From assembly GCF_003334765.1 (NCBI RefSeq), contig NZ_QOWT01000003.1: 64,000 nt of DNA; one strand, given 5' to 3'. The notes beneath the pieces are model-generated. The model was not told the origin of the DNA, made no database searches, and was given only the letters and a program-made list of their open reading frames with translations. Below are positions 6,485 to 54,712 of the stretch, one piece after another (positions within the stretch are counted from its first letter, which is position 1; each line of letters begins with the position of its first letter). The position numbers and the translations under genes were made by a program. Source of the DNA: Escherichia coli (GTDB taxonomy: Bacteria > Pseudomonadota > Gammaproteobacteria > Enterobacterales > Enterobacteriaceae).

Positions 6485-8310
6485 TGAAATTGCAAAAGCA
6501 ATTACTGGAAGCTGTGGAGCACAAACAGCTACGCCCGCTGGATGTGCAATTTGCCCTGACCGTGGCGGGAGATGAACATCCTGCCGTCACCCTCGCGGCG
6601 GCACTGTTAAGTCATGATGCCGGAGAGGGACACGTTTGTTTGCCGCTTTCACGACTGGAAAATAACGAGGCGTCGCATCCGCTGTTGGCGACCTGTGTCA
6701 GTGAAATCGGTGAGCTACAAAATTGGGAAGAATGCTTGCTGGCTTCTCAAGCGGTCAGCAGGGGAGATGAACCCACGCCGATGATCCTCTGTGGCGATCG
6801 TCTTTATTTGAATCGCATGTGGTGTAACGAGCGCACAGTGGCACGCTTTTTCAACGAAGTGAATCATGCCATTGAGGTTGATGAAGCTCTACTGGCGCAA
6901 ACCCTGGACAAACTTTTTCCAGTAAGCGATGAAATTAACTGGCAAAAAGTTGCGGCGGCAGTGGCGCTGACGCGGCGGATCTCGGTGATTTCCGGCGGCC
7001 CTGGCACCGGTAAAACGACCACCGTAGCGAAGTTGCTGGCAGCGTTAATTCAAATGGCCGACGGCGAACGCTGCCGTATCCGTCTGGCTGCACCAACGGG
7101 TAAAGCTGCCGCGCGCTTAACCGAATCTCTCGGCAAGGCTTTGCGACAGTTACCGCTGACCGATGAACAAAAGAAACGCATTCCGGAAGATGCCAGCACT
7201 TTGCACCGATTGCTGGGCGCGCAGCCGGGTAGCCAGCGTTTACGTCATCATGCCGGTAACCCGCTGCATCTTGATGTGCTGGTGGTAGATGAAGCGTCAA
7301 TGATCGATCTGCCTATGATGTCGAGACTGATCGACGCCTTGCCCGATCATGCGCGAGTGATCTTTCTCGGCGATCGTGATCAACTGGCCTCGGTTGAGGC
7401 TGGGGCTGTGCTGGGCGATATCTGCGCTTATGCCAACGCGGGCTTTACCGCCGAGCGTGCCAGGCAGCTAAGCCGCCTGACGGGGACTCACGTTCCGGCA
7501 GGAACCGGCACAGAAGCGGCATCTTTGCGCGACAGTCTCTGCCTGCTGCAAAAAAGCTATCGTTTCGGCAGCGATTCTGGCATTGGTCAGTTAGCTGCGG
7601 CGATCAACCGTGGTGATAAAACGGCAGTGAAAACCGTTTTTCAGCAGGATTTTACTGATATCGAAAAACGGCTTTTACAGAGCGGCGAAGATTATATTGC
7701 GATGCTTGAGGAAGCTCTTGCGGGTTACGGACGTTATCTGGATCTGCTGCAAGCGCGTGCCGAGCCGGATTTAATCATTCAGGCGTTCAATGAGTACCAG
7801 CTTTTGTGCGCCCTGCGGGAAGGGCCGTTTGGCGTGGCTGGACTGAATGAGCGAATTGAGCAGTTTATGCAACAGAAGCGCAAAATTCATCGTCATCCGC
7901 ACTCTCGTTGGTACGAAGGTCGACCGGTGATGATTGCCCGTAATGACAGCGCGCTTGGGTTGTTTAATGGCGATATCGGTATTGCGCTGGATCGCGGGCA
8001 GGGGACGCGCGTCTGGTTTGCGATGCCGGACGGCAATATTAAGTCTGTGCAACCGAGTCGCTTGCCAGAGCACGAAACTACGTGGGCGATGACGGTACAT
8101 AAATCGCAGGGATCGGAGTTCGACCATGCGGCGTTGATTTTGCCGAGCCAACGCACGCCGGTAGTAACGCGAGAGCTGGTTTATACCGCGGTGACCCGCG
8201 CGCGTCGCCGTCTGTCGCTGTATGCCGATGAGCGCATATTAAGTGCGGCAATCGCCACTCGTACTGAGCGGCGCAGTGGTCTGGCGGCGTTGTTTAGTTC
8301 ACGGGAATAA
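6484..8310 (+). CDS. recD: RecBCD helicase subunit RecD
   Basis: 608-aa ORF with P-loop GGPGTGKTT; start ATG overlaps recB stop (TAATG); recognised as RecD. Confidence 0.95.
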
Positions 8311-9934: not shown

Positions 9935-11188
9935 ATGTCAGGATCCAACACTGCAATCAGCCGTCGTCGTTTACTGCAAGGCGCGGGTGCCATGTGGCTA
10001 TTGAGCGTAAGTCAGGTCAGTCTGGCTGCGGTCAGCCAGGTCGTGGCGGTGCGCGTCTGGCCTGCGTCCAGCTACACCCGCGTGACGGTGGAATCAAATC
10101 GTCAGCTGAAATATAAGCAGTTCGCGTTGAGTAACCCTGAACGCGTGGTGGTGGATATCGAAGATGTAAACCTGAACTCGGTACTCAAGGGGATGGCGGC
10201 ACAAATTCGTGCAGACGACCCGTTCATCAAGTCGGCGCGCGTCGGGCAATTTGACCCGCAAACCGTACGGATGGTTTTTGAATTAAAGCAAAACGTAAAA
10301 CCGCAGCTGTTTGCCCTTGCGCCGGTCGCCGGGTTTAAAGAGCGTCTGGTGATGGACCTCTATCCGGCCAATGCACAGGATATGCAGGACCCGCTGCTGG
10401 CGCTGCTGGAGGATTACAACAAAGGCGACCTCGAAAAGCAGGTGCCGCCAGCGCAAAGTGGTCCACAACCGGGTAAAGCAGGGCGCGATCGTCCGATTGT
10501 CATTATGCTTGACCCTGGCCACGGTGGCGAAGACTCCGGTGCGGTGGGGAAATACAAAACGCGCGAAAAAGATGTGGTATTGCAAATAGCTCGCCGTTTG
10601 CGCTCTCTGATCGAGAAAGAGGGCAATATGAAGGTGTACATGACGCGCAATGAAGACATCTTCATTCCATTGCAAGTGCGCGTAGCAAAAGCCCAGAAAC
10701 AGCGTGCTGACCTGTTTGTCTCTATCCATGCCGACGCCTTTACCAGTCGTCAGCCGAGCGGTTCCTCTGTGTTTGCGCTCTCAACCAAAGGTGCAACCAG
10801 TACTGCGGCAAAATATCTGGCACAAACCCAGAACGCCTCGGACTTGATTGGTGGCGTGAGCAAAAGCGGTGACCGCTATGTCGACCACACCATGTTCGAT
10901 ATGGTACAGTCGCTGACCATTGCCGACAGCCTGAAGTTTGGTAAAGCGGTACTGAATAAGCTCGGTAAAATCAACAAGCTGCATAAAAATCAAGTTGAAC
11001 AGGCCGGGTTTGCCGTACTAAAGGCACCAGATATTCCCTCCATTCTGGTCGAAACGGCGTTTATCAGTAACGTTGAGGAAGAGCGTAAACTGAAAACGGC
11101 GACTTTCCAGCAGGAAGTTGCGGAGTCTATTCTTGCGGGGATTAAAGCGTATTTTGCCGATGGGGCGACGCTGGCGAGAAGGGGATGA
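9935..11188 (+). CDS. amiC: N-acetylmuramoyl-L-alanine amidase AmiC (Tat-exported)
   Basis: ORF track starts at 9845; the recognised start [19 protein letters not shown] (twin-arginine signal) is ATG 9935, giving 417 aa; Amidase_3 domain. Confidence 0.92.
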
Positions 11189-11261
11189 TAAAAAGGCGCT
11201 GAATGGCGCTTTTTTATGGGAGACCAGAAACAAAAAAACACCCGTTAGGGTGTTCAATAAT

Positions 11262-11338
<77 letters not shown>

Positions 11339-11546
11339 TCCGTGGATGCGCACTATACTCCGCTCGCGTTTTCATGCAACCTTTTTTTTACCCCGATCAC
11401 GGATTTGGCATGATTTTGAACAAAAACAAATCACTAAAGCCTATTTTTTGTGCAAAATTTGCGTCAGGGAGAGGCTGCTCATTTCATTAAACGCGGCGGT
11501 TTGTTATCTTCGTTGCGCCTTATTTTTTAACCTGAAGAAGAGAACA

Positions 11547-12678: not shown

Positions 12679-12863
12679 CAGGGTGAGGGGTAACCTCACA
12701 TCCTGATTATTGACTAAGTGCGCGTTGTTCATGCCGGATGCGGCGTGAACGCCTTATCCGGCCTACAAATCATGCAAATCCAAAATATTGCAGGAGTTAT
12801 GTAGGCCTGATAAGCGTAGCGCATCAGGCATTTATGCGTTTAGGGTGAGGGATAACCTCGCCC
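12679..12863. repeat. BIME/REP cluster: two inverted REP palindromes flanked by near-identical hairpin-forming direct repeats
   Basis: REP copies GCCGGATGCGGCGTGAACGCCTTATCCGGCCTAC (12733-12766) and inverted GTAGGCCTGATAAGCGTAGCGCATCAGGC (12801-12829); flanking GGGTGAGGG(G/A)TAACCTC at 12681-12700 and 12843-12860. Confidence 0.8.
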
Positions 12864-15823: not shown

Positions 15824-16029
15824 AAAAAAAAGCACCGCAATTAGGCGGTGCTACATTAATCACTATGGACAGACAGGGTAAATGTACAGGAAGTGAAAAA
15901 AGGTAGCTTTGCTACCATGGTCTGAATCGCAGACCAATTGCAAACACAACAACACAACATCACAACCGTAAGCCAAAAGTTCACCAGAACACGCATTCCG
16001 ATAAAACTTTTCGTTCCGGCTCAGGAAGT
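15824..16029 (-). ncRNA. gcvB: GcvB small regulatory RNA (Hfq-dependent, regulates amino-acid transporters)
   Basis: Reverse complement reads ACTTCCTGAGCCGGAACGAAAAG...GCACCGCCTAATTGCGGTGCTTTTTTT, the 206-nt GcvB sequence with GU-rich R1 region and intrinsic terminator; divergent from gcvA. Confidence 0.92.
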
Positions 16030-16157
16030 GCCGCCACTATAGGTATTTGCTGGTAGAAGCTCAACGGACAATTTATAATGGCTAAGATTAAAAAAACTAA
16101 TAGGTTACATAGTGTGATCTAATTGTTAAATTCATTTAACATCAAAGTTTAATAGCC

Positions 16158-17075
16158 ATGTCTAAACGATTACCACCGCTAAATGCCTTACGAGTTTTTG
16201 ATGCCGCAGCACGCCATTTAAGTTTCACTCGCGCAGCAGAAGAGCTTTTTGTGACCCAAGCCGCAGTAAGTCATCAAATCAAGTCTCTTGAGGATTTTTT
16301 GGGGCTAAAACTGTTCCGCCGCCGTAATCGTTCACTCCTGCTGACCGAGGAAGGGCAAAGCTATTTCCTCGATATCAAAGAGATATTTTCGCAATTAACC
16401 GAAGCGACGCGTAAACTCCAGGCCCGTAGCGCCAAGGGGGCGTTGACGGTCAGTTTACTCCCCAGTTTCGCCATTCATTGGTTGGTTCCGCGACTTTCCA
16501 GCTTTAATTCAGCTTATCCGGGAATTGACGTTCGAATCCAGGCGGTTGATCGTCAGGAAGATAAGCTGGCGGATGATGTTGATGTGGCGATATTTTATGG
16601 TCGGGGCAACTGGCCGGGGCTACGGGTGGAAAAACTGTACGCCGAATATTTATTGCCGGTGTGTTCGCCGCTACTGCTGACTGGCGAAAAACCCTTGAAG
16701 ACACCGGAAGATCTGGCTAAACATACGTTATTACATGATGCTTCGCGCCGTGACTGGCAGACATATACCCGACAGTTGGGGTTAAATCATATCAACGTTC
16801 AGCAAGGGCCAATTTTTAGCCATAGCGCCATGGTGCTGCAAGCGGCTATCCACGGGCAGGGAGTGGCGCTGGCAAATAACGTGATGGCGCAATCTGAAAT
16901 CGAGGCCGGACGTCTTGTTTGCCCGTTTAATGATGTTCTGGTCAGTAAAAATGCTTTTTATCTGGTTTGTCATGACAGTCAGGCAGAACTGGGTAAAATA
17001 GCCGCCTTTCGCCAATGGATCCTGGCGAAAGCCGCTGCTGAACAAGAAAAATTCCGCTTTCGTTATGAACAATAA
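16158..17075 (+). CDS. gcvA: LysR-family transcriptional regulator of the glycine cleavage system
   Basis: 305-aa ORF with N-terminal LysR helix-turn-helix; recognised as GcvA. Confidence 0.95.
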   Translation: MSKRLPPLNALRVFDAAARHLSFTRAAEELFVTQAAVSHQIKSLEDFLGLKLFRRRNRSLLLTEEGQSYFLDIKEIFSQLTEATRKLQARSAKGALTVSLLPSFAIHWLVPRLSSFNSAYPGIDVRIQAVDRQEDKLADDVDVAIFYGRGNWPGLRVEKLYAEYLLPVCSPLLLTGEKPLKTPEDLAKHTLLHDASRRDWQTYTRQLGLNHINVQQGPIFSHSAMVLQAAIHGQGVALANNVMAQSEIEAGRLVCPFNDVLVSKNAFYLVCHDSQAELGKIAAFRQWILAKAAAEQEKFRFRYEQ

Positions 17076-33444: not shown

Positions 33445-33990
33445 GTGGACGATTTGACCGCACAAGCCCTGAAAGATTTTACTGCACGCTACTGCGATGC
33501 GTGGCATGAAGAGCATAAAAGCTGGCCGTTAAGTGAGGAACTGTACGGTGTTCCTTCACCGTGCATTATTTCAACTACCGAAGATGCCGTATACTGGCAA
33601 CCCCAGCCGTTTACCGGGGAACAAAATGTAAACGCGGTTGAACGCGCTTTTGATATTGTGATACAACCCACAATTCATACCTTTTATACGACTCAGTTTG
33701 CCGGGGATATGCACGCGCAGTTTGGCGATATCAAACTGACATTGCTGCAAACCTGGAGTGAAGACGACTTCCGTCGGGTGCAGGAAAATCTGATTGGTCA
33801 TCTGGTGACTCAGAAAAGGCTAAAACTGCCGCCCACACTATTTATCGCGACGCTGGAAGAAGAGTTAGAGGTCATCTCGGTGTGTAATCTCTCCGGTGAA
33901 GTGTGCAAAGAGACGCTGGGAACACGTAAACGGACGCATTTAGCCTCAAATCTTGCGGAATTCCTTAATCAACTTAAGCCTCTTCTGTAA
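33445..33990 (+). CDS. syd: SecY-interacting protein Syd
   Basis: 181-aa ORF recognised as Syd. Confidence 0.9.
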
Positions 33991-34009
33991 TCCAAATACC
34001 CCATCTGGT

Positions 34010-34027
34010 TGTGAGAGATCTCTTACA
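34010..34027. promoter_or_regulatory. UvrY (SirA) response-regulator box upstream of csrB
   Basis: Near-perfect 18-bp palindrome TGTGAGAGATCTCTTACA seen in sequence about 175 bp upstream of the csrB start. Confidence 0.85.
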
Positions 34028-34200
34028 GACTCTGTAGGAGATCGCCAGGAAATAAGCGAATACTTAAAAAGATAAGAATCGTTATTTTCATTTAAAATCA
34101 AAATGTTGATTGTTAATTCTTAACTTTCATATGAAATTTTCCTTAAGGCATTGTCTGTAAGCGCCTTGTAAGACTTCGCGAAAAAGACGATTCTATCTTC

Positions 34201-34569
34201 GTCGACAGGGAGTCAGACAACGAAGTGAACATCAGGATGATGACACTTCTGCAGGACACACCAGGATGGTGTTTCAGGGAAAGGCTTCTGGATGAAGCGA
34301 AGAGGATGACGCAGGACGCGTTAAAGGACACCTCCAGGATGGAGAATGAGAACCGGTCAGGATGATTCGGTGGGTCAGGAAGGCCAGGGACACTTCAGGA
34401 TGAAGTATCACATCGGGGTGGTGTGAGCAGGAAGCAATAGTTCAGGATGAACGATTGGCCGCAAGGCCAGAGGAAAAGTTGTCAAGGATGAGCAGGGAGC
34501 AACAAAAGTAGCTGGAATGCTGCGAAACGAACCGGGAGCGCTGTGAATACAGTGCTCCCTTTTTTTATT
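34201..34569 (+). ncRNA. csrB: CsrB sRNA, CsrA-sequestering decoy
   Basis: About 369 nt beginning GTCGACAGGGAGTCAGACAACGAAG with roughly 18-22 GGA motifs, mostly CAGGA(U/A)G in predicted loops; ends in hairpin GGGAGCGCTGTGAATACAGTGCTCCC plus T7. Confidence 0.93.
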
Positions 34570-34611
34570 CCTGCTATCCTTCGCGGCAGTTTTTCTTATT
34601 GAGGTTGCTTT

Positions 34612-34941
34612 ATGACCACTCATGACCGCGTTCGTCTCCAGTTGCAGGCGCTTGAAGCGTTACTGCGTGAACATCAGCACTGGCGAAACGATGAACCCCA
34701 GCCGCATCAATTTAATAGTACCCAACCGTTCTTTATGGACACCATGGAACCACTGGAGTGGTTGCAGTGGGTGCTGATCCCGCGAATGCACGATTTGTTA
34801 GATAACAAACAGCCGTTACCGGGCGCTTTTGCCGTTGCACCCTATTATGAAATGGCGCTGGCGACGGACCATCCGCAACGCGCGCTTATTCTGGCTGAGC
34901 TGGAAAAACTGGATGCTCTTTTTGCGGATGATGCGAGCTAA
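34612..34941 (+). CDS. yqcC: DUF446-family protein
   Basis: 109-aa ORF recognised as YqcC; stop overlaps truC start (TAATG). Confidence 0.85.
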   Translation: MTTHDRVRLQLQALEALLREHQHWRNDEPQPHQFNSTQPFFMDTMEPLEWLQWVLIPRMHDLLDNKQPLPGAFAVAPYYEMALATDHPQRALILAELEKLDALFADDAS

Positions 34942-35723
34942 TGCTGGAAATACTCTATCAGGATGAATGGCTGGTTGCGGTAAATAAACCCTCCGGCTGG
35001 CTGGTTCACCGCAGCTGGCTGGATCGCGACGAGAAAGTAGTGGTCATGCAAACCGTGCGTGACCAGATAGGCCAGCATGTTTTTACTGCTCATCGTCTGG
35101 ACCGACCCACTTCTGGTGTGTTGTTGATGGGATTATCCAGCGAGGCCGGACGGCTGCTGGCACAACAGTTTGAACAGCACCAAATCCAGAAACGTTACCA
35201 TGCGATTGTGCGCGGCTGGTTGATGGAAGAAGCGGTGCTGGATTATCCACTGGTGGAAGAACTGGACAAAATCGCTGATAAATTTGCCCGCGAAGATAAA
35301 GGCCCGCAGCCAGCAGTGACGCATTATCGCGGTCTGGCGACCGTAGAAATGCCGGTAGCGACCGGACGTTACCCGACCACGCGCTACGGCCTGGTGGAAC
35401 TGGAGCCGAAAACCGGACGCAAACATCAGCTTCGCCGACATCTTGCCCATTTGCGTCATCCGATTATTGGCGATAGCAAACATGGCGATTTACGCCAGAA
35501 TCGCAGCGGTGCTGAGCATTTTGGCCTCCAGCGGTTAATGCTACATGCCAGTCAGTTGTCATTGACGCATCCTTTTACTGGCGAGCCGCTGACTATTCAC
35601 GCGGGCCTGGACGACACCTGGATGCAGGCGTTATCACAATTTGGCTGGCGCGGTCTGCTTCCTGAAAATGAAAGGGTTGAGTTCAGTGCGCCATCGGGTC
35701 AGGATGGAGAGATAAGTTCCTAA
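34941..35723 (+). CDS. truC: tRNA pseudouridine(65) synthase
   Basis: 260-aa ORF with catalytic motif [11 protein letters not shown]; recognised as TruC. Confidence 0.92.
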
Positions 35724-35740
35724 TCCAGGGAGAAAACGGT

Positions 35741-36190
35741 ATGGCGGAAATTGGTATTTTTGTCGGCACCATGTACGGGAATTCACTGTTAGTGGCCGAA
35801 GAAGCGGAAGCGATTCTGACCGCGCAGGGCCACAAAGCAACGGTATTTGAAGATCCTGAATTAAGCGACTGGCTGCCCTATCAGGATAAGTATGTTCTGG
35901 TGGTTACGTCCACGACCGGGCAGGGCGACCTTCCTGATAGCATTGTGCCACTCTTTCAGGGAATCAAAGATAGTCTGGGCTTCCAGCCGAATCTGCGTTA
36001 TGGCGTGATTGCGCTCGGCGACAGTAGTTATGTGAATTTCTGCAATGGCGGCAAACAGTTCGATGCCTTGTTGCAGGAACAGAGCGCTCAGCGGGTTGGC
36101 GAAATGCTGTTGATTGACGCCAGTGAGAACCCGGAACCGGAAACGGAATCAAATCCGTGGGTCGAACAGTGGGGCACGCTGTTGTCCTGA
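35741..36190 (+). CDS. yqcA: Flavodoxin-like FMN-binding protein
   Basis: 149-aa ORF with flavodoxin fold signature; recognised as YqcA. Confidence 0.88.
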
Positions 36191-36624
36191 TATGTTCAGC
36201 GAGCGGTAAATGTCGTTTTAGCGGTGCTGAATCGAATCTTTTCAGGCAAATGTCAGTAAAAACTGCTTCATAGCGCGGATTTTTACTGGCGTTTGCCTGG
36301 AGTCAAGCGATCCATTTCATACTCTTCTTTATTTCTTCGTTTTAACCCTTCCTTTCTTGTTCTTGTTTTCATTTCCGTGAAGTGGATTCCACCGTCCAGG
36401 GCTAATGCCAAAATCGGGCCTCATTGAACGCATTAATGTTGTGTTGTTGCACGGTGAGCCGCTATGGCGCGCTTTTTATACTGCTATTGCCAGATATAAA
36501 CACGCGCCGTATTCGGCGAACGACCTATAAAAACGGCAAAAAACACCCTACGTCACCTCTGATTTCCTGGCGATGTCGCAGTCCAGAGTGAGCGTGGCTA
36601 ACGCGAATTTTCAGGAGTGCAACA

Positions 36625-37977
36625 ATGAGTTCTTTAAGTCAGGCTGCGAGCAGTGTGGAAAAACGCACAAATGCTCGTTACTGGATAGTGGTGATGTTGT
36701 TTATCGTCACATCCTTCAACTACGGCGACCGCGCTACGCTCTCTATCGCCGGTTCGGAAATGGCCAAAGATATCGGCCTTGATCCCGTGGGAATGGGCTA
36801 TGTGTTCTCTGCTTTCTCATGGGCTTATGTTATCGGGCAGATCCCTGGTGGCTGGTTGCTGGACCGTTTTGGTTCAAAACGCGTCTACTTCTGGTCGATC
36901 TTTATCTGGTCGATGTTTACCTTGCTGCAAGGCTTCGTCGATATCTTTAGTGGATTCGGCATTATCGTTGCCCTGTTTACGCTGCGCTTCCTGGTCGGGC
37001 TTGCTGAAGCGCCATCTTTCCCCGGCAACAGTCGCATTGTTGCGGCCTGGTTTCCGGCGCAGGAAAGGGGAACGGCGGTGTCGATTTTTAACTCCGCTCA
37101 ATACTTCGCAACGGTGATCTTCGCGCCGATTATGGGCTGGCTGACGCATGAAGTGGGCTGGTCACACGTCTTCTTCTTTATGGGCGGTCTGGGGATTGTC
37201 ATCAGCTTTATCTGGTTGAAAGTCATCCACGAGCCAAATCAACATCCGGGGGTAAATAAGAAAGAGCTGGAGTACATCGCCGCGGGTGGTGCGCTGATCA
37301 ATATGGATCAGCAAAACACCAAAGTTAAAGTGCCGTTCAGCGTGAAGTGGGGGCAGATCAAACAGCTGCTAGGGTCACGGATGATGATCGGCGTTTATAT
37401 CGGTCAGTACTGTATCAACGCCCTGACTTACTTCTTTATTACCTGGTTCCCGGTTTATCTGGTGCAGGCACGCGGGATGTCGATTCTGAAAGCGGGCTTT
37501 GTGGCTTCCGTGCCGGCGGTTTGCGGTTTTATCGGCGGTGTGCTGGGTGGGATTATTTCCGACTGGCTGATGCGCCGCACGGGATCGCTGAACATTGCGC
37601 GTAAAACACCGATCGTAATGGGCATGTTGCTGTCGATGGTGATGGTGTTCTGCAACTACGTCAACGTTGAGTGGATGATCATCGGCTTTATGGCGCTGGC
37701 CTTCTTCGGTAAGGGCATCGGGGCGCTGGGTTGGGCAGTAATGGCAGATACCGCGCCAAAAGAGATCAGCGGTCTTTCCGGTGGCCTGTTCAACATGTTC
37801 GGTAACATTTCTGGCATCGTCACGCCAATCGCAATTGGTTATATCGTTGGCACGACTGGCTCGTTTAATGGGGCGCTGATTTATGTTGGTGTTCATGCCT
37901 TAATCGCGGTACTGAGCTACCTGGTGCTGGTGGGCGATATCAAGCGTATCGAGTTGAAACCTGTTGCGGGGCAATAA
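36625..37977 (+). CDS. gudP: Glucarate/galactarate transporter (MFS)
   Basis: 450-aa polytopic membrane ORF recognised as GudP. Confidence 0.92.
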
Positions 37978-37978
37978 G

Positions 37979-39319
37979 ATGGCGACACAATCCAGTCCTG
38001 TTATTACTGATATGAAAGTCATTCCGGTGGCCGGGCATGACAGCATGTTGCTTAATATTGGTGGGGCACATAACGCATATTTCACCCGCAATATTGTGGT
38101 ACTCACCGATAACGCCGGGCATACCGGCATTGGTGAAGCGCCGGGCGGAGATGTGATTTATCAGACGCTTGTCGATGCTATTCCGATGGTTCTGGGCCAG
38201 GAAGTTGCGCGACTGAATAAAGTGGTCCAGCAGGTGCATAAAGGTAATCAGGCCGCCGATTTTGATACCTTCGGTAAAGGTGCCTGGACCTTTGAATTAC
38301 GCGTTAACGCCGTGGCGGCGCTGGAAGCCGCTTTGCTTGACCTGCTAGGTAAGGCGCTGAATGTTCCGGTCTGCGAACTGTTAGGGCCAGGCAAGCAACG
38401 CGAGGCTATTACCGTCCTCGGTTATCTGTTTTATATCGGTGATCGGACCAAAACCGATCTTCCTTATGTGGAAAATACGCCGGGCAACCATGAGTGGTAT
38501 CAGTTGCGGCATCAGAAAGCAATGAACAGCGAAGCCGTTGTGCGTCTGGCGGAAGCCTCACAGGATCGCTACGGCTTTAAAGATTTCAAACTTAAGGGCG
38601 GCGTGTTACCTGGCGAGCAAGAAATCGACACTGTTCGTGCATTGAAGAAACGCTTCCCGGATGCGCGGATTACCGTTGATCCCAACGGTGCATGGCTGCT
38701 TGATGAAGCCATTTCTTTATGCAAAGGGCTGAATGATGTTCTTACCTATGCCGAAGATCCATGCGGCGCAGAACAGGGCTTCTCCGGACGTGAAGTGATG
38801 GCGGAATTTCGACGGGCGACCGGCTTGCCCGTCGCGACTAACATGATCGCCACCAACTGGCGCGAAATGGGTCATGCGGTGATGCTCAATGCGGTAGATA
38901 TTCCACTTGCCGATCCGCACTTCTGGACGCTTTCCGGTGCAGTCCGTGTGGCGCAGCTTTGCGACGACTGGGGGCTGACCTGGGGCTGCCATTCTAATAA
39001 CCATTTCGATATCTCTCTGGCGATGTTTACCCATGTGGGCGCGGCGGCACCGGGTAATCCTACCGCTATCGATACCCACTGGATTTGGCAGGAGGGCGAT
39101 TGTCGCCTGACCCAAAATCCGCTGGAGATTAAAAACGGAAAAATTGCCGTTCCTGATGCGCCCGGTCTGGGCGTGGAACTGGACTGGGAACAGGTACAAA
39201 AGGCACATGAGGCCTATAAACGTCTGCCTGGCGGTGCGCGTAACGACGCAGGTCCGATGCAGTACCTGATCCCCGGCTGGACCTTTGACCGTAAACGTCC
39301 CGTTTTCGGCCGTCATTGA
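37979..39319 (+). CDS. gudX: Glucarate dehydratase-related protein (enolase superfamily)
   Basis: ORF track starts at 37964; the recognised start [14 protein letters not shown] is ATG 37979, giving 446 aa; paralogous to the next gene. Confidence 0.9.
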
Positions 39320-39339
39320 TTCTGAAAAAGGACATAAAT

Positions 39340-40680
39340 ATGAGTTCTCAATTTACGACGCCTGTTGTTACTGAAATGCAGGTTATCCCGGTGGCGGGTC
39401 ATGACAGTATGCTGATGAATCTGAGTGGTGCACACGCACCGTTCTTTACGCGTAATATTGTGATTATCAAAGATAATTCTGGTCACACTGGCGTAGGGGA
39501 AATTCCCGGCGGCGAGAAAATCCGTAAAACGCTGGAAGATGCGATTCCGCTGGTGGTAGGTAAAACGCTGGGTGAATACAAAAACGTTCTGACGCTGGTG
39601 CGTAATACTTTTGCCGATCGTGATGCTGGTGGGCGCGGTTTGCAGACATTTGACCTACGTACCACTATTCATGTAGTTACCGGGATAGAAGCGGCAATGC
39701 TGGATCTGCTGGGGCAGCATCTGGGGGTAAACGTGGCATCGCTGCTGGGCGATGGTCAACAGCGTAGCGAAGTCGAAATGCTCGGTTATCTGTTCTTCGT
39801 CGGTAATCGCAAAGCCACGCCGCTGCCGTATCAAAGCCAGCCGGATGACTCATGCGACTGGTATCGCCTGCGTCATGAAGAAGCGATGACGCCGGATGCG
39901 GTGGTGCGCCTGGCGGAAGCGGCATATGAAAAATATGGCTTCAACGATTTCAAACTGAAGGGCGGTGTACTGGCCGGGGAAGAAGAGGCCGAGTCTATTG
40001 TGGCACTGGCGCAACGCTTCCCGCAGGCGCGTATTACGCTCGATCCTAACGGTGCCTGGTCGCTGAACGAAGCGATTAAAATCGGTAAATACCTGAAAGG
40101 TTCGCTGGCTTATGCAGAAGATCCGTGTGGTGCGGAGCAAGGTTTCTCCGGGCGTGAAGTGATGGCAGAGTTCCGTCGCGCGACAGGTCTACCGACTGCA
40201 ACCAATATGATCGCCACCGACTGGCGGCAAATGGGCCATACGCTCTCCCTGCAATCCGTTGATATCCCGCTGGCGGATCCGCATTTCTGGACAATGCAAG
40301 GTTCGGTACGTGTGGCGCAAATGTGCCATGAATTTGGCCTGACCTGGGGTTCACACTCTAACAACCACTTCGATATTTCCCTGGCGATGTTTACCCATGT
40401 TGCCGCCGCTGCACCGGGTAAAATTACTGCTATTGATACGCACTGGATTTGGCAGGAAGGCAATCAGCGCCTGACCAAAGAACCGTTTGAGATCAAAGGC
40501 GGGCTGGTACAGGTGCCAGAAAAACCGGGGCTGGGTGTAGAAATCGATATGGATCAAGTGATGAAAGCCCATGAGCTGTATCAGAAACACGGGCTTGGCG
40601 CGCGTGACGATGCGATGGGAATGCAGTATCTGATTCCTGGCTGGACGTTCGATAACAAGCGCCCGTGCATGGTGCGTTAA
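39340..40680 (+). CDS. gudD: D-glucarate dehydratase (enolase superfamily)
   Basis: ORF track starts at 39316; the recognised start [15 protein letters not shown] is ATG 39340, giving 446 aa; followed by hairpin AAACCGGCTC...GAGCCGGTTT. Confidence 0.93.
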
Positions 40681-40803
40681 GACAGAAAACCAAAACCGGC
40701 TCTATCTGGAGCCGGTTTGAGACTGATGCTAAACGCAAAATAGCCTGTTGTGCTATGTATCAGGTCTACATCATTTTTTAATTCATTGAATTTAATTGGT
40801 TTT

Positions 40804-40839
40804 GTAGGCCGGATAAGGCGTTAACGCCGCATCCGGCAT
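40804..40839. repeat. REP palindrome
   Basis: GTAGGCCGGATAAGGCGTTAACGCCGCATCCGGCAT seen in sequence. Confidence 0.8.
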
Positions 40840-40911
40840 AAACACAGGCACTTTGTCACCAATCTGAAACCAGCGTCATAAAAAGCCGATTGCTACTCGA
40901 CAAGACATCCA

Positions 40912-43668
40912 TTACCCGAGAATTTTGCTGGCTTCGCGCGCGACATTATCCATCTCGTCCAACAGTTCCAGCAGCTCCGGTTCCAAATCTTCTTCTTTAG
41001 TACCGCTACGTAGCTGTTGTTCGATCAGTTGGCAGAGATTCTTCATACGTGGCACACCGCTATAGCCGCAACTGCCATGCAGTTTATGAATCAAATCAAC
41101 CAGGCCTTCCGGGTTTTCTCCAACCAGCTGTTCCTCAACTTTGTTGCGAACTTCAGGCAGGAAATCGAGTAACATTTGCAGCATATCGCGCGCTAAATCG
41201 GTTTTTCCTGCTGCCTGGCGTAGTGCCAGTTGCCAGTCGAGGGTCGCATTCGGGTTCACCACAATTTCGTTGACTTCGGGCGTCACGACGCGAGAGGAAA
41301 TACCGCTGCCAGGCTTGTAGCGCAACAACAAATTATGCAATCGCTCTTCTTCAATCGGTTTCGCCAGATAATCGCTCATCCCTGCGCCAAGCAGCTTCTC
41401 TTTTTGCCCGGCCATTGCATGCGCCGTTACCGCGATAACCGGCGTTTGTTGCTGATGCGGGAGTTGGTGGATGAGTTCGCAGGCCCGAATGCCATCCATG
41501 TCCGGCATTTGAATATCCATTAAGATCAAATCGAACGGCATCTGTTTCGCCCGTTCAACCGCCTGATGCCCGCTATCGCAAAGTTCCACATGTTGCACCA
41601 TATCTTCCAGCAATGCGCCGATAAGTTTCAGGTTAGCGGGGTTGTCATCAACCGCCATGACTGTCATTGCCAGCTTACTTTCATCGGTTACAGGCAAAAG
41701 CGTGTTTTGTTTGTGATGACAAAATTCCGTCAGGGCAGGCAACAGGCGTGTAGGTGTTAATGGTTTCAGCAGACACGCGCCGATACCATCTTGCTTGAGT
41801 TTTTCAGCATTGACTTGTGCATGGCAAGGAAGTGCCAGCATCAGGAAATCGGTCATCGATACCGCTTTCGCTAATCGCTCATGTTGCATTGTTAGCGGCT
41901 CGCGGAAGGTCACCGCGATGCCTAACAACATCATGTCGTAATGCGCGGGAGGCAGCGCGGAGAACGTTGGGCTATAAACCACTTCCAGCGGCGTTTCACT
42001 TAAAATATCCAGCGTGCATTGCGCTGCTGCGGAGTTTGGTTCGACATAGGCCAGGCGCTTACCTGCGAGGCACTGGGTGGATGGCCCTTCGATAATAATG
42101 TTCGGGTTCAGATCGAGATTAATGTGGAACCAGAAAGTTGAACCGCGATTCGGCTGGCTATGGAACGAAATATCGCCGCCCATTTCATTAACCAGTTTTT
42201 GTGTAATCACCAGCCCCAGCCCGGTGCCACCATGACGGCGGGAAATACTGGCATCAGCCTGTCGGAAGGCCTGGAATAAGCGCGATTGATCGCGTTCAGG
42301 AATACCAATGCCGGTATCCCGAATCTGCACTTCAATCTGCACTTTGGTATTACTCAGCGCACGTTTTTCTACCAGAATATCAATGTTGCCATTCTCGGTG
42401 AATTTAATTGCATTCCCCACCAGGTTAGTGATGATTTGCTGTAATCGCAGCGGGTCGCCGATCACGTTATCAGGCACGTCGCTTTTAATATTGAGCGTCA
42501 GTTCTAACCCTTTATCGTGAGAAGAATGTGCCAGCAGAGTAACGACTTCATCCAGCGTGCTGCGTAGTGGGAATGGAATACTTTCCAGAATCAGCTTACC
42601 TGCTTCCAGTTTCGAGAAGTCGAGAACATCATTAATAATTGCCAGCAAATTATTTGCCGAACGTTCAATCGTATTCAGGTGATCGCGCTGCGTTGGTGTT
42701 AATTCTGTTTTCAGCGTCAGGCGGGTAAAGCCAATAACACCATTCAGTGGTGTACGCAGCTCGTGTGACATATTTGCCAGAAACTCGGATTTAATACGCG
42801 CCGCTTCCTGGGCGCGCTTTTTCGCCAGATCTAACTCAACGTTCTGAATTTCCATCTGCTCCAGCGTTTCACGCAGATCGGACGTCGCCTGGTCGATATT
42901 GTGCTGCATCTCTTCGTGATAAGCAGCCAGCGACATTGCCATCGAGTTGATACCGTTTTTCAGCATATCCAGCTCGCCGAGCATAAATCCTTCCACCCGG
43001 CTGTCGAGTTGCCCGCGACGGATGCGGTCGACGGTATTCACCATGTTGCGAATCGGACCGGTTACATCGCGCATTAAGCGCCAGCCAAAAATAAGCGCAA
43101 TACCGATACAAAACAGCATCATCACGCTGGAAATAAAGATCTCTTTATATTGCTGCAAGCGAACCGATTTAAGATCCAGCTCCAGCGCAATATATCCCAA
43201 CATATTTTGACTATTTTTGGCATCGCTACTGGGCGATTCGTCGGGGGAGTAACTCTCAGAAATAATCGGCGTGCGGAGGATCATAATATCGCCGTCACGA
43301 GTGACAGTGAGCTGGCGAGGAAACGGCACGTTGCTGCCGAGCTGCATTGATGAGGGATCAAGATGAAAATTGGAGGTGACAAAGAGTCGGTTATTTTCAT
43401 CATAAACCGAAATCGCGCGAACAATATCGGAATGGCGACGATGCAGTACGCTTATTAACTGACCGATAGATTCGCGATTTTGCAGGCTCATGCCATATTC
43501 AGTAGAAACTGCAAGCGGCTCAATAATGCTGGCACCGGCATCTTCCAGTTGACGCTGCAAGTCGTTATAGCGATGCACGACGAAAAAGATACTCAGCAAT
43601 AAACCAATAAGGACGGTCGGTGCCAGGATCAGAATCATCATGCGTGCGCGCAGGCTGTAGTTGGTCAT
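40912..43668 (-). CDS. barA: Hybrid sensor histidine kinase BarA (tripartite HK-REC-HPt)
   Basis: 918-aa ORF with HAMP, H-box SHELRTPLN, receiver domain and C-terminal HPt; recognised as BarA. Confidence 0.95.
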
Positions 43669-43724
43669 GGAGTTCCGTTATGGGACAATTAAGGTCACAC
43701 TGTTAAATTGAGAAAGTCTCGCCA

Positions 43725-45026
43725 ATGGCGCAATTCTACTCTGCAAAACGACGCACGACGACGCGTCAGATCATAACCGTTTCAGTCAACGACCTCGACT
43801 CTTTTGGTCAGGGCGTGGCGCGACATAACGGCAAAACGCTATTTATCCCCGGATTATTGCCGCAGGAAAACGCGGAAGTTACTGTTACTGAAGATAAAAA
43901 ACAGTATGCCCGCGCTAAAGTCGTACGCCGGTTAAGCGATAGCCCGGAACGCGAAACGCCACGCTGTCCTCATTTTGGCGTATGCGGTGGCTGTCAGCAA
44001 CAACACGCCAGCGTGGATTTACAGCAGCGAAGCAAAAGTGCGGCACTCGCCCGATTAATGAAACACGATGTCTCTGAAGTGATCGCCGATGTTCCCTGGG
44101 GCTATCGCCGTCGCGCGCGTTTAAGTCTGAACTACTTACCGAAAACACAGCAACTTCAGATGGGGTTTCGCAAAGCGGGCTCCAGTGACATTGTCGACGT
44201 CAAACAATGCCCCATTTTAGCGCCCCAACTTGAAGCATTGCTGCCCAAAGTCAGGGCATGTCTGGGCAGCTTACAAGCTATGCGCCATCTTGGTCATGTT
44301 GAACTGGTACAGGCAACCAGCGGCACGCTGATGATTTTGCGCCATACCGCACCGCTAAGTTCGGCAGATCGCGAAAAACTGGAACGCTTTTCGCATTCTG
44401 AAGGCCTGGATCTGTATCTCGCCCCCGATAGTGAGATACTCGAAACCGTCTCTGGTGAGATGCCCTGGTATGACTCAAACGGGTTGCGCTTAACTTTTAG
44501 CCCGCGCGATTTTATTCAGGTCAATGCGGGTGTGAACCAAAAAATGGTAGCGCGTGCGTTGGAATGGCTGGATGTGCAACCTGAAGATCGCGTACTGGAT
44601 CTGTTCTGCGGTATGGGCAACTTTACACTGCCATTGGCGACACAAGCTGCCAGTGTGGTCGGTGTAGAAGGTGTTCCGGCGCTGGTGGAAAAAGGCCAGC
44701 AGAATGCGCGTCTTAATGGCTTACAGAATGTGACGTTTTATCACGAAAATCTTGAAGAAGATGTCACAAAGCAGCCGTGGGCGAAAAACGGCTTCGATAA
44801 AGTGTTGCTGGACCCGGCGCGAGCAGGTGCCGCAGGTGTTATGCAGCAAATTATAAAACTGGAACCTATTCGTATAGTTTATGTATCCTGTAACCCTGCA
44901 ACGCTGGCTCGGGATAGCGAAGCGTTATTAAAAGCAGGATATACCATTGCGCGACTGGCGATGCTGGATATGTTCCCACACACGGGACATCTGGAATCGA
45001 TGGTACTTTTCTCGCGCGTTAAATAG
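43725..45026 (+). CDS. rlmD: 23S rRNA m5U1939 methyltransferase (RumA)
   Basis: 433-aa ORF with Cys cluster [11 protein letters not shown] and SAM-MTase fold; recognised as RlmD. Confidence 0.92.
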
Positions 45027-45073: not shown

Positions 45074-47308
45074 ATGGTTGCGGTAAGAAGTGCACATATC
45101 AATAAGGCTGGTGAATTTGATCCGGAAAAATGGATCGCAAGTCTGGGTATTACCAGCCAGAAGTCGTGTGAGTGCTTAGCCGAAACCTGGGCGTATTGTC
45201 TGCAACAGACGCAGGGGCATCCGGATGCCAGTCTGTTATTGTGGCGTGGTGTTGAGATGGTGGAGATCCTCTCGACATTAAGTATGGACATTGACACGCT
45301 GCGGGCGGCGCTGCTTTTCCCTCTGGCGGATGCCAACGTAGTCAGCGAAGATGTGCTGCGTGAGAGCGTCGGTAAGTCGGTCGTTAACCTTATTCACGGC
45401 GTGCGTGATATGGCGGCGATCCGCCAGCTGAAAGCGACGCACACTGATTCTGTTTCCTCCGAACAGGTCGATAACGTTCGCCGGATGTTATTGGCGATGG
45501 TCGATGATTTTCGCTGCGTAGTCATCAAACTGGCGGAGCGTATTGCTCATCTGCGCGAAGTAAAAGATGCGCCGGAAGATGAACGTGTACTGGCGGCAAA
45601 AGAGTGTACCAACATCTACGCACCGCTGGCTAACCGTCTCGGAATCGGACAACTGAAATGGGAACTGGAAGATTACTGCTTCCGTTACCTCCATCCAACC
45701 GAATACAAACGAATTGCCAAACTGCTGCATGAACGGCGTCTCGACCGCGAACACTACATCGAAGAGTTCGTTGGTCATCTGCGCGCTGAGATGAAAGCTG
45801 AAGGCGTTAAAGCGGAAGTGTATGGTCGTCCGAAACACATCTACAGCATCTGGCGTAAAATGCAGAAAAAGAACCTCGCCTTTGATGAGCTGTTTGATGT
45901 GCGTGCGGTACGTATTGTCGCCGAGCGTTTACAGGATTGCTATGCCGCACTGGGGATAGTGCACACTCACTATCGCCACCTGCCGGATGAGTTTGACGAT
46001 TACGTCGCTAACCCGAAACCAAACGGTTATCAGTCTATTCATACCGTGGTTCTGGGGCCGGGTGGAAAAACCGTTGAGATCCAAATCCGCACCAAACAGA
46101 TGCATGAAGATGCAGAGTTGGGTGTTGCTGCGCACTGGAAATATAAAGAGGGCGCGGCTGCTGGCGGCGCACGTTCGGGACATGAAGACCGGATTGCCTG
46201 GCTGCGTAAACTGATTGCGTGGCAGGAAGAGATGGCTGATTCCGGCGAAATGCTCGACGAAGTACGTAGTCAGGTCTTTGACGACCGGGTGTACGTCTTT
46301 ACGCCGAAAGGTGATGTCGTTGATTTGCCTGCGGGATCAACGCCGCTGGACTTCGCTTACCACATCCACAGTGATGTCGGACACCGCTGCATCGGGGCAA
46401 AAATTGGCGGGCGCATTGTGCCGTTCACCTACCAGCTGCAGATGGGCGACCAGATTGAAATTATCACCCAGAAACAGCCGAACCCCAGCCGTGACTGGTT
46501 AAACCCAAACCTCGGTTACGTCACAACCAGCCGTGGGCGTTCGAAAATTCACGCCTGGTTCCGTAAACAGGACCGTGACAAAAACATTCTGGCTGGGCGG
46601 CAAATCCTTGACGACGAGCTGGAACATCTGGGGATCAGCCTGAAAGAAGCAGAAAAACATCTGCTGCCGCGTTACAACTTCAATGATGTCGACGAGTTGC
46701 TGGCGGCGATTGGTGGCGGGGATATCCGTCTCAATCAGATGGTGAACTTCCTGCAATCGCAATTTAATAAGCCGAGTGCCGAAGAGCAGGACGCCGCCGC
46801 GCTGAAGCAACTTCAGCAAAAAAGCTACACGCCGCAAAACCGCAGTAAAGATAACGGTCGCGTGGTAGTCGAAGGTGTTGGCAACCTGATGCACCACATC
46901 GCGCGCTGCTGCCAGCCGATTCCTGGAGATGAGATTGTCGGCTTCATTACCCAGGGGCGCGGTATTTCAGTACACCGCGCCGATTGCGAACAACTGGCGG
47001 AACTGCGCTCCCATGCGCCAGAACGCATTGTTGACGCGGTATGGGGTGAGAGCTACTCCGCCGGATATTCGCTGGTGGTCCGCGTGGTAGCTAATGATCG
47101 TAGTGGGTTGTTACGTGATATCACGACCATTCTCGCCAACGAGAAGGTGAACGTGCTTGGCGTTGCCAGCCGTAGCGACACCAAACAGCAACTGGCGACC
47201 ATCGACATGACCATTGAGATTTACAACCTGCAAGTGCTGGGGCGCGTGCTGGGTAAACTCAACCAGGTGCCGGATGTTATCGACGCGCGTCGGTTGCACG
47301 GGAGTTAG
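45074..47308 (+). CDS. relA: GTP pyrophosphokinase, (p)ppGpp synthetase I
   Basis: 744-aa ORF recognised as RelA. Confidence 0.95.
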   Translation: MVAVRSAHINKAGEFDPEKWIASLGITSQKSCECLAETWAYCLQQTQGHPDASLLLWRGVEMVEILSTLSMDIDTLRAALLFPLADANVVSEDVLRESVGKSVVNLIHGVRDMAAIRQLKATHTDSVSSEQVDNVRRMLLAMVDDFRCVVIKLAERIAHLREVKDAPEDERVLAAKECTNIYAPLANRLGIGQLKWELEDYCFRYLHPTEYKRIAKLLHERRLDREHYIEEFVGHLRAEMKAEGVKAEVYGRPKHIYSIWRKMQKKNLAFDELFDVRAVRIVAERLQDCYAALGIVHTHYRHLPDEFDDYVANPKPNGYQSIHTVVLGPGGKTVEIQIRTKQMHEDAELGVAAHWKYKEGAAAGGARSGHEDRIAWLRKLIAWQEEMADSGEMLDEVRSQVFDDRVYVFTPKGDVVDLPAGSTPLDFAYHIHSDVGHRCIGAKIGGRIVPFTYQLQMGDQIEIITQKQPNPSRDWLNPNLGYVTTSRGRSKIHAWFRKQDRDKNILAGRQILDDELEHLGISLKEAEKHLLPRYNFNDVDELLAAIGGGDIRLNQMVNFLQSQFNKPSAEEQDAAALKQLQQKSYTPQNRSKDNGRVVVEGVGNLMHHIARCCQPIPGDEIVGFITQGRGISVHRADCEQLAELRSHAPERIVDAVWGESYSAGYSLVVRVVANDRSGLLRDITTILANEKVNVLGVASRSDTKQQLATIDMTIEIYNLQVLGRVLGKLNQVPDVIDARRLHGS

Positions 47309-54317: not shown

Positions 54318-54712
54318 GTGTTCCCCGCGCCAGCGGGGATAAACCGGCAAAAACCGGGCAATCGCAAAAAGGCGTAATGTGTTCCCCGCGCCAGCGGGGA
54401 TAAACCTGTGTTTGCGGCATTAACGCTCACCAGCATTTCGTGTTCCCCGCGCCAGCGGGGATAAACCGACGTGGTCATGGGTGCTGCTGTTGCAGAGCCA
54501 GTGTTCCCCGCGCCAGCGGGGATAAACCGAGCAGATACACGGCTTTGTATTCCGTGCGCCCGTGTTCCCCGCGCCAGCGGGGATAAACCGAATAGCAATA
54601 GTCCATAGATTTGCGAAAACAGGTGTTCCCCGCGCCAGCGGGGATAAACCGGAGCCTGACGAGACTACTGAGGCCGTTCTGTCGAGTTCCCCGCGCCAGC
54701 GGGGATAAACCA
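54318..54712 (+). CRISPR. Type I-E CRISPR array, 7 repeats and 6 spacers of 32 bp, leader-proximal end at 54318
   Basis: 29-bp repeat GTGTTCCCCGCGCCAGCGGGGATAAACCG at 54318, 54379, 54440, 54501, 54562, 54623 and 54684 with 61-bp period; repeat 2 ends CCT; terminal repeat is degenerate (GAG...ACCA). Confidence 0.96.

Follow-up and report, generated by a model that had tools for sequence, protein, structure and literature searches.

In a 64-kb stretch of Escherichia coli DNA (the window), the gene for the BarA sensor kinase lies close to csrB, the sRNA gene that its pathway activates, which raises the question of whether this closeness is part of the Csr circuit or simply inherited gene order. 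A preliminary description had placed the two genes within 7 kb of each other, and this observation was confirmed: 6,342 bp separate the csrB 3' end (34569) from the barA stop (40912), the two genes are convergent, and the segment 34010-43668 extends from the UvrY box through the barA start codon. A full-text literature search returned no relevant earlier comment on how close barA and csrB lie.

The window proved to be unremarkable Escherichia coli chromosome. A BLAST report gave 33900-43800 as 100% identical to E. coli FDAARGOS_1248, and a separate comparison recorded one mismatch with that genome, at window position 37512. Full colinearity of the two was ruled out by indels upstream of 11262 and near 54469, so gene coordinates derived from FDAARGOS_1248 are trustworthy only from 11262 to ~54469. 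Gene names were taken from the PGAP annotation of this near-identical genome and protein families from NCBIfam profiles. Between csrB and barA lie six unrelated genes, yqcC-truC-yqcA and gudP-gudX-gudD, with the start codon of yqcC 43 nt beyond the end of csrB (34569); these and the outer neighbors are as follows.

33445-33990, plus strand: syd, SecY-interacting protein (NCBIfam NF003439, 286.7 bits; PGAP)
34612-34941, plus strand: yqcC (PGAP name)
34941-35723, plus strand: truC (NCBIfam TruC, 500.5 bits; PGAP name)
35741-36190, plus strand: yqcA (NCBIfam flavodoxin, 258.6 bits; PGAP name)
36625-37977, plus strand: gudP, glucarate-catabolism spacer (NCBIfam, PGAP)
37979-39319, plus strand: gudX, glucarate-catabolism spacer (NCBIfam, PGAP)
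39340-40680, plus strand: gudD, glucarate-catabolism spacer (NCBIfam, PGAP)
43725-45026, plus strand: rlmD (NCBIfam RlmD, 640.8 bits; PGAP name)
45074-47308, plus strand: relA (PGAP name)

The preliminary description had identified the two genes correctly. The RNA gene belongs to the CsrB/RsmB family (Rfam RF00018), which it matches over the full length of the covariance model (positions 1-356 of 356) with 380.4 bits (E 1e-110; gathering score 71).

34201-34569, plus strand: csrB, predicted CsrA-sequestering sRNA (Rfam match 34210-34569; start 34201 inferred from the published inverted-repeat position)
34534-34569, plus strand: intrinsic terminator of csrB, in which a T7 run follows a GC-rich stem of 11 bp (terminator scan, with stem and T7 at 34534-34566; Rfam terminal hairpin; MFE fold)

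GGA occurs 21 times in 34210-34569 and once more at 34209-34211, giving 22 copies in 369 nt and making csrB the GGA-densest stretch of the window (22 per 360 nt, versus 13 for the next-best and a median of 4). Folding had been proposed as a check on how these motifs are presented, and it placed them largely as expected of CsrB/RsmB RNAs, in loops and linkers: the Rfam consensus structure has GGA in the loop of 11 of the 12 csrB hairpins, and the MFE fold (z = -3.99) has 8 GGA in hairpin loops, 9 otherwise unpaired and 4 paired. The 3' Rho-independent terminator is likewise a family trait. CsrA binding and sequestration are known for E. coli CsrB from literature cited in PMC1488887 and PMC4682653, and the product encoded here, from a locus that is 100% identical to a complete E. 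coli genome over 33900-43800, is expected to be the same CsrA-sequestering RNA. A simple sigma-70 consensus scan of 33950-34650 returned zero promoters and was uninformative, because the known csrB promoter also escaped detection.

The UvrY palindrome reported upstream of csrB was also recovered exactly, together with a second element.

34010-34027, no strand assigned: UvrY-P binding site, 18-nt inverted repeat TGTGAGAGATCTCTTACA (exact match; published footprint)
34033-34041, plus strand: extra half-site TGTAGGAGA, partially conserved, 5 bp 3' of the inverted repeat (sequence reading; PMC4682653)

The repeat has this single exact occurrence in the window, where 0 were expected from 100 shuffles. 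It is identical to the repeat footprinted in E. coli csrB, which is centered at -183/-182 (PMC4682653), and an 18-nt palindrome at about -183 is what characterizes promoters activated by UvrY/SirA/GacA. A similar inverted repeat was present upstream of every csrB found by nhmmer (36 copies at 35 loci, the reference E. coli locus being counted as one), with 0-4 mismatches and at a near-constant distance; the exact repeat accompanied 25 of the 36 copies. The csrB of Vibrio stylophorae has a perfect UvrY box upstream, though its linkage to barA is absent.

40912-43668, minus strand: barA, tripartite hybrid sensor kinase (ORF of 918 aa; NF008318; Pfam)

BarA was assigned to the NCBIfam equivalog NF008318 with 1623.9 bits over residues 1-917 (cutoff 890). 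Its Pfam domains follow the order sCache_4, HAMP, HisKA, HATPase_c, Response_reg, Hpt, and His302, Asp718 and His861 each lie in the expected motif, in agreement with a tripartite architecture. Neither uvrY nor csrA was found within the 64-kb window. That UvrY is encoded elsewhere, as had been stated, agrees with the annotation of the near-identical genome, which lists no uvrY across the window, and with a search using a UvrY probe, whose sole match was the receiver domain of BarA itself (28.6% identity).

These parts would assemble into a familiar circuit. BarA would autophosphorylate and pass phosphate from His302 to Asp718 to His861 and on to UvrY; UvrY-P would then bind the inverted repeat, which lies ~183 bp before the csrB start, and activate csrB transcription with the help of IHF, and CsrB would tie up CsrA at roughly 22 GGA sites. 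A 2002 study by Suzuki is reportedly a source for the E. coli K-12/Salmonella BarA(-SirA)-UvrY to csrB circuit. The pathway is indeed well characterized, as had been remarked, and the phosphorelay, UvrY binding and IHF requirement are taken from Zere 2015 (PMC4682653). No difference from that circuit was apparent, the window showing this locus as it stands in a further E. coli strain: both the inverted repeat, which keeps its published distance, and the TGTAGGAGA half-site are unchanged, and a full-length CsrB is accompanied by a BarA equivalog that has the phosphorelay residues. The genes, the UvrY box and their map positions are thus textbook E. coli and already known biology. Since the circuit works in trans through diffusible UvrY, its mechanism needs no closeness of barA and csrB.

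How widely is the closeness shared? Of 5426 complete E. coli genomes, 5414 (>99.7%) carry the intact 9.9-kb segment in one piece; among the 12 without it, one exceptional genome has a truncated barA fused beside hofP, with csrB-gudD absent from the record. Conservation across Enterobacteriaceae had been suggested as a check, and was assessed with one genome per species and 10-kb flanks (BarA at least 70% identical, downstream flank at least 9.9 kb). In this set csrB lay at most 10 kb from barA in 31 of 32 species loci, always convergent and with constant gene order; at the 32nd locus, the sequence ends at yqcC. The distance ranged from 1,669 to 8,944 bp (median 7.3 kb), and about 20 genera besides E. 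coli's own showed the linkage. Three species of Erwiniaceae keep the order at somewhat greater distances (P. stewartii, 9.5 kb; Erwinia endophytica, 10.2 kb; Pantoea sp., 11.0 kb), so that the spacer varies ~six-fold across genera, from 1.7 to 11 kb. Spacers that hold genes hold mostly gar/gud, the presence of gud varies between genera, and several genera have no gud genes there. The linkage was to be judged unremarkable if absent from most related genera, which is not the case in the sampled Enterobacteriaceae and Erwiniaceae.

Outside these families, other arrangements were found. In Edwardsiella and Moritella, barA is followed by acpS/pdxJ-recO-era-rnc-lepA, and in Yersinia nurmii by degP-dgt-mtnN-btuF, the linkage being absent from all three. 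In Rahnella, barA is followed by gar genes, which adjoin it there too, and then exbDB-metC, with no CsrB found within 18 kb. An Rfam search of 12 unlinked barA loci detected CsrB in 0 of 12. A GGA-dense 300-nt window in Edwardsiella (locus L036, ~7939-8238) was considered as CsrB and rejected as relA coding sequence with chance enrichment. From the other side of the junction, a word-indexed homolog search with Syd gave, among the matches listed (at least 120), Enterobacteriaceae alone, with identities of no less than 69%, and csrB of Yersiniaceae could not be located among them; published tables place Yersinia csrB beside syd. Among representatives clustered at 50% identity, the cluster names identified Syd only in Providencia, Vibrio stylophorae and Utexia, and the first two were used. 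Both have syd...yqcC-truC-yqcA followed by glnD-map-rpsB, with barA absent there; in V. stylophorae, csrB lies between syd and yqcC.

Two blocks of different depth emerge from these comparisons. Gene order relA-rlmD-barA persists as far as Moritella and Alcanivorax, and syd adjoins csrB in the window and in all csrB-positive loci examined, V. stylophorae included. The neighbor of csrB that is deeply conserved is syd, and yqcC-truC-yqcA moves with both as one old block. Judged from gene order, the barA junction is evidently younger than either flanking block; its age is only bracketed, because the sample is without Pectobacteriaceae and Budviciaceae.

We therefore consider it very probable that the window holds the standard E. 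coli barA...csrB neighborhood and that the closeness is inherited gene order (neutral synteny) and not part of the circuit. The variable spacer, the convergent and separate transcription units, the younger junction and the occurrence of the UvrY box without linkage all argue for inherited synteny with no functional module. Nor were the traits of a functional two-component module found: the cognate response regulator is not in the cluster (uvrY is absent from the 64 kb), the genes are neither adjacent nor co- or divergently transcribed with constrained spacing, and linkage does not accompany both components wherever they occur (six unlinked taxa: Yersinia, Rahnella, Edwardsiella, Moritella, Providencia and Vibrio stylophorae). 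We infer a single ancestral juxtaposition followed by neutral retention. Two older blocks, queF-syd-csrB-yqcC-truC-yqcA and barA-rlmD-relA, would have come together, with sugar-diacid (gar/gud) genes where they met, in an ancestor shared by Enterobacteriaceae and Erwiniaceae; colinearity would then have been kept, while in some lineages gene loss cut a spacer of about 10-11 kb down to 1.7 kb. What this adds to known biology is a dated picture of the neighborhood, in which the blocks would have been joined only in the Enterobacteriaceae-Erwiniaceae lineage and gar/gud genes gained and lost where they meet. The linkage is useful as a synteny marker for finding csrB in new genomes of these families, and it gives no evidence for mechanistic coupling. 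The preliminary interpretation is thus supported overall, with one adjustment: the linkage, put forward as notable for Csr circuit evolution, is real and clade-wide, but the comparison lends a function no support, given the ~six-fold variation of the spacer.

Alternatively, selection might maintain the linkage as a loose functional neighborhood, which we regard as unlikely. It might pay for the sensor to be inherited together with its target, the two might profit from gene dosage or from sharing a chromosomal domain, or there might be a functional tie between carboxylate-sensing BarA, the gar/gud spacer genes and Csr control of carbon metabolism. Order and convergence are constant in every adequately flanked Enterobacteriaceae/Erwiniaceae genome sampled, but the spacer is not, and the convergent genes are separate transcription units with a strong terminator after csrB. 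The mostly gar/gud content of the spacer, with gar also beside barA in Rahnella, would suit a metabolic tie, but several genera do without gud, and BarA acts only via diffusible UvrY (PMC4682653). By our own arithmetic, the a priori chance of two named genes lying no more than 6.3 kb apart in a 4.9-Mb genome is ~0.3%, and the junction persists across two families; however, the flanking blocks are conserved more deeply than the junction, and the linkage is missing in Yersiniaceae, Hafniaceae, Morganellaceae, Vibrio and Moritella, V. stylophorae still having the UvrY box. A stronger form, in which the barA/gar-gud/csrB juxtaposition is non-neutral and has been selected since the Enterobacteriaceae-Erwiniaceae ancestor, e.g. 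for co-inheritance or a shared chromosomal domain, appears more doubtful still; if it were true, the Csr decoy RNA, the sensor of carboxylates and a gene cluster for their catabolism would gain from staying together.

That the proximity is an E. coli peculiarity or strain-level chance, absent from related genera, could draw on the 12 E. coli genomes without the intact segment, including the one with truncated barA by hofP, but is refuted, to the point of being hardly credible, by its presence in >99.7% of complete E. coli genomes, about 20 other Enterobacteriaceae genera and Erwiniaceae.

The csrB-syd neighborhood was published by Kulkarni et al. 2006 (PMC1488887), whose tabulated context has csrB beside syd, as in the window; the flanking genes given in those tables are syd (and yqcC), with no mention of barA, and the barA juxtaposition belongs to the Enterobacteriaceae/Erwiniaceae sampled here. 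The GacS/GacA-RsmY/Z system of Pseudomonas and VarS/VarA-CsrB/C/D of Vibrio resemble the BarA circuit in that a hybrid kinase feeds a FixJ-type regulator, and in having a palindromic upstream box before a GGA-rich decoy RNA. Unlike csrB in E. coli here, their decoy sRNAs are often multi-copy, and gacS and varS are not among the sRNA flanking genes in the tables of PMC1488887. At the V. stylophorae locus examined, the sRNA gene does not lie near the sensor gene, unlike in E. coli, and a box exactly matching the VarA consensus, TGTG[AC]GAGATCTCT[TC]ACA (PMC6262261), stands upstream of its CsrB.

Gene order in the window was found to be ppnN, queF, syd, the UvrY box (the 18-nt inverted repeat TGTGAGAGATCTCTTACA), csrB, yqcC, truC, yqcA, gudP, gudX, gudD, barA (reverse), rlmD and relA. 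The barA stop codon lies 6,342 bp from the csrB 3' end and the two genes are convergent, in agreement with a preliminary description that had placed the BarA sensor kinase within 7 kb of the CsrB RNA and its UvrY palindrome.

Features of the csrB and barA genes in the window
34010-34027: UvrY box TGTGAGAGATCTCTTACA, the single exact match in the window (0 matches in 100 shuffles)
34033-34041: TGTAGGAGA half-site, as published
34210-34569, plus strand: csrB match to Rfam RF00018, 380.4 bits against a gathering score of 71, model covered end to end
40912-43668, minus strand: barA ORF, 918 aa

The BarA product scored 1623.9 bits against the NCBIfam BarA equivalog (cutoff 890), contains the Pfam domains sCache_4, HAMP, HisKA, HATPase_c, Response_reg and Hpt, and carries His302, Asp718 and His861 in the expected motifs. 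Zere et al. (2015; PMC4682653) mapped the inverted repeat to -183/-182 from the csrB start of E. coli, with an additional half-site 5 bp downstream; this places csrB +1 at 34201 and the gene at 34201-34569 (369 nt).

Counting GGA motifs in CsrB, as the preliminary description had proposed, gave 22 in the full RNA: 21 in the 360-nt Rfam match and one at 34209-34211. csrB is the GGA-densest 360-nt stretch on either strand of the window (22 vs. 13 for the next best; median 4). The Rfam consensus structure, as aligned, has 12 hairpins, of which 11 present GGA in the loop and the twelfth is the terminator; for the latter, a terminator scan found a stem of 11 bp followed by a T7 run. Minimum-free-energy folding (-118.8 kcal/mol, z = -3.99) places 8 GGA motifs in hairpin loops, 9 in otherwise unpaired positions and 4 in paired positions.

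The yqcC start codon follows the csrB 3' end (34569) at a distance of only 43 nt (window 34570-34611), and this distance is likewise 42-60 nt across most Enterobacteriaceae loci. There is little space for a separate promoter; yqcC-truC-yqcA may be expressed by read-through from csrB or from a promoter within it. RefSeq/PGAP annotation of the near-identical genome of E. coli FDAARGOS_1248 contains no ncRNA feature for csrB (34201-34569) or GcvB (15824-16029), despite Rfam scores of 380 and 199 bits, both far over threshold. An ES036/CssrF sRNA match (46.5 bits) was also observed at 12766-12808 (plus strand).

Positions 33900-43800 are 100% identical to FDAARGOS_1248 by BLAST, and this segment is unbroken in 5414 of 5426 complete E. 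coli genomes. Across the extent of the window, the FDAARGOS_1248 annotation includes no uvrY, csrA, csrC or csrD; a UvrY probe matched only BarA's own receiver domain in the window, and a CsrA probe gave no meaningful match there. Thus UvrY is encoded elsewhere, as originally described. The tRNA-Met gene at 11262-11338 (minus strand) is the only copy in the window, vs. three tandem copies in FDAARGOS_1248, so the two sequences are out of register upstream of it (window 10900-11500); a second indel lies near 54469. In the urine isolate E. coli CNR20180903 (NZ_OZ369161.1 364346-385085, from a 4.28-Mb chromosome record), barA is a pseudogene, truncated at the C terminus and fused next to hofP. 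That record contains no match to the csrB-yqcC-truC-yqcA-gudPXD segment, and mazEF is likewise missing between relA and mazG.

Conservation of the linkage was surveyed with a BarA query, one genome per species and 10-kb flanks, yielding 71 loci in which csrB was mapped by nhmmer and neighboring genes by tblastn. Among the 32 Enterobacteriaceae loci (BarA identity of at least 70%, downstream flank of at least 9.9 kb), 31 had csrB within 10 kb of barA, always convergent, in the constant order barA-[spacer]-yqcA-truC-yqcC-csrB-syd-queF. The exception was Citrobacter gillenii, whose flank stops at yqcC, so that csrB would fall just past it. The barA-csrB distance ranged from 1,669 to 8,944 bp (median 7.3 kb).

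Spacer classes in Enterobacteriaceae
1.7 kb, without gud genes: E. albertii, strain RIT691
2.8 kb: Pluralibacter
3-5 kb, gud genes none or gudD only: several genera
About 7.3 kb, with a glycerate kinase gene also present between barA and gudD: most genera

About 1 kb of additional DNA separates yqcC from csrB in Pluralibacter gergoviae (locus L021, 14441-15497) and Klebsiella sp. BIGb0407 (L031, 11968-12942). In Citrobacter werkmanii NBRC 105721 (L046, 10001-12753), the length of the barA match (2,753 nt) is not divisible by three, and 60% or more of BarA is not spanned by any single tblastn segment, a pattern suggestive of a frameshift that reflects either a pseudogene or a sequencing error.

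Twelve loci gave no Rfam match to CsrB within 10 kb of barA. Five are Erwiniaceae whose flank stopped at yqcA (Erwinia endophytica, Mixta, [Erwinia] mediterraneensis, Pantoea sp. WMus005 and a Pantoea MAG). Two of these were extended with the YqcA protein, and Rfam placed CsrB just past the flank, 10.2 kb from barA in E. endophytica and 11.0 kb in WMus005; in P. stewartii the distance is 9.5 kb. The extended spacers read yqcC(-truC)-yqcA-garD-gudP-gudX-gudD-garL-garR-garK; E. endophytica is without truC between yqcC and yqcA (L073, 9523-10450), and WMus005 retains it. The other seven are Yersinia nurmii, Rahnella, Rouxiella, Edwardsiella, two Moritella and Ca. Pantoea persica, in whose reduced genome the junction is broken. 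In Ca. P. persica, the region downstream of barA also contains two matches to the OmrA-B family (L056, 17109-17216 and 18918-18994).

Genes following barA where the linkage is absent
Edwardsiella, Moritella: acpS/pdxJ-recO-era-rnc-lepA
Yersinia nurmii: degP-dgt-mtnN-btuF...clcA
Rahnella: gar genes, then exbDB...metC; neither CsrB nor UvrY box within 18 kb

The arrangement common to Edwardsiella and Moritella is probably ancestral, given the large distance between these taxa. At the syd loci of Providencia and Vibrio stylophorae, the order is queF-syd-...-yqcC-truC-yqcA-...-glnD-map-rpsB, and a hybrid kinase gene is absent. The V. stylophorae CsrB is flanked by syd and yqcC and is preceded, at about 209 nt, by a perfect TGTGAGAGATCTCTTACA. 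In Providencia alcalifaciens (L079, 10561-12090), a DUF535 gene lies between syd and yqcC, and neither Rfam, nhmmer nor GGA density revealed a CsrB beside syd; judging from this locus, Providencia csrB must be located elsewhere or strongly diverged.

Of two old, conserved blocks, one, queF-syd-csrB-yqcC-truC-yqcA, is common to Vibrio and Enterobacterales, and the other, barA-rlmD-relA, extends to Moritella and Alcanivorax; in the sampled set the two abut only in Enterobacteriaceae and Erwiniaceae, which established taxonomy treats as sister families (reported by Adeolu et al. 2016). The simplest account would be that the blocks were joined once, by rearrangement in the ancestor of both families, the order then being kept by ordinary synteny retention. 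Selection maintaining the linkage is very improbable: both flanks are more conserved than the junction, which tolerates a six-fold length change and the gain or loss of gar/gud genes; BarA acts through diffusible UvrY-P, which activates csrB transcription from the inverted repeat with IHF help (PMC4682653), so regulation needs no proximity; and the UvrY box is intact in V. stylophorae, where barA and csrB are unlinked. Therefore, we consider the linkage to be real and present across the clade, but not functional.

The pathway is well characterised, as the preliminary description had said, and everything in its finding is standard E. coli biology. No remark on the proximity of the two genes was found in the open-access literature; their map positions have nevertheless been public since the K-12 genome, and the observation brings no new mechanism. 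Published tables place csrB/rsmB beside syd in Yersinia, Pectobacterium and Photorhabdus (PMC1488887; PMC3672283), the former reporting the conserved csrB-syd context in 2006.

A UvrY-box-like inverted repeat (0-4 mismatches) was present at near-constant distance upstream of all 36 csrB copies from 35 loci, reference E. coli included, and was exact in 25. An uncultured Enterobacteriaceae MAG (CALYPF010000002.1; L028) has two tandem copies between yqcC and syd (15982-16331 and 16673-17017; nhmmer, 135 bits each), each with its own palindrome about 203 nt upstream, apparently a csrB duplication in an enterobacterial genome, similar in kind to those described for Vibrio. In Pseudocitrobacter faecalis (L011, 20249-20656), the csrB match is in two pieces with overlapping query ranges (45-359 and 2-89), suggesting that about 45 nt are duplicated internally and that this CsrB is longer; accordingly, the UvrY box lies farther from the main match (285 nt).
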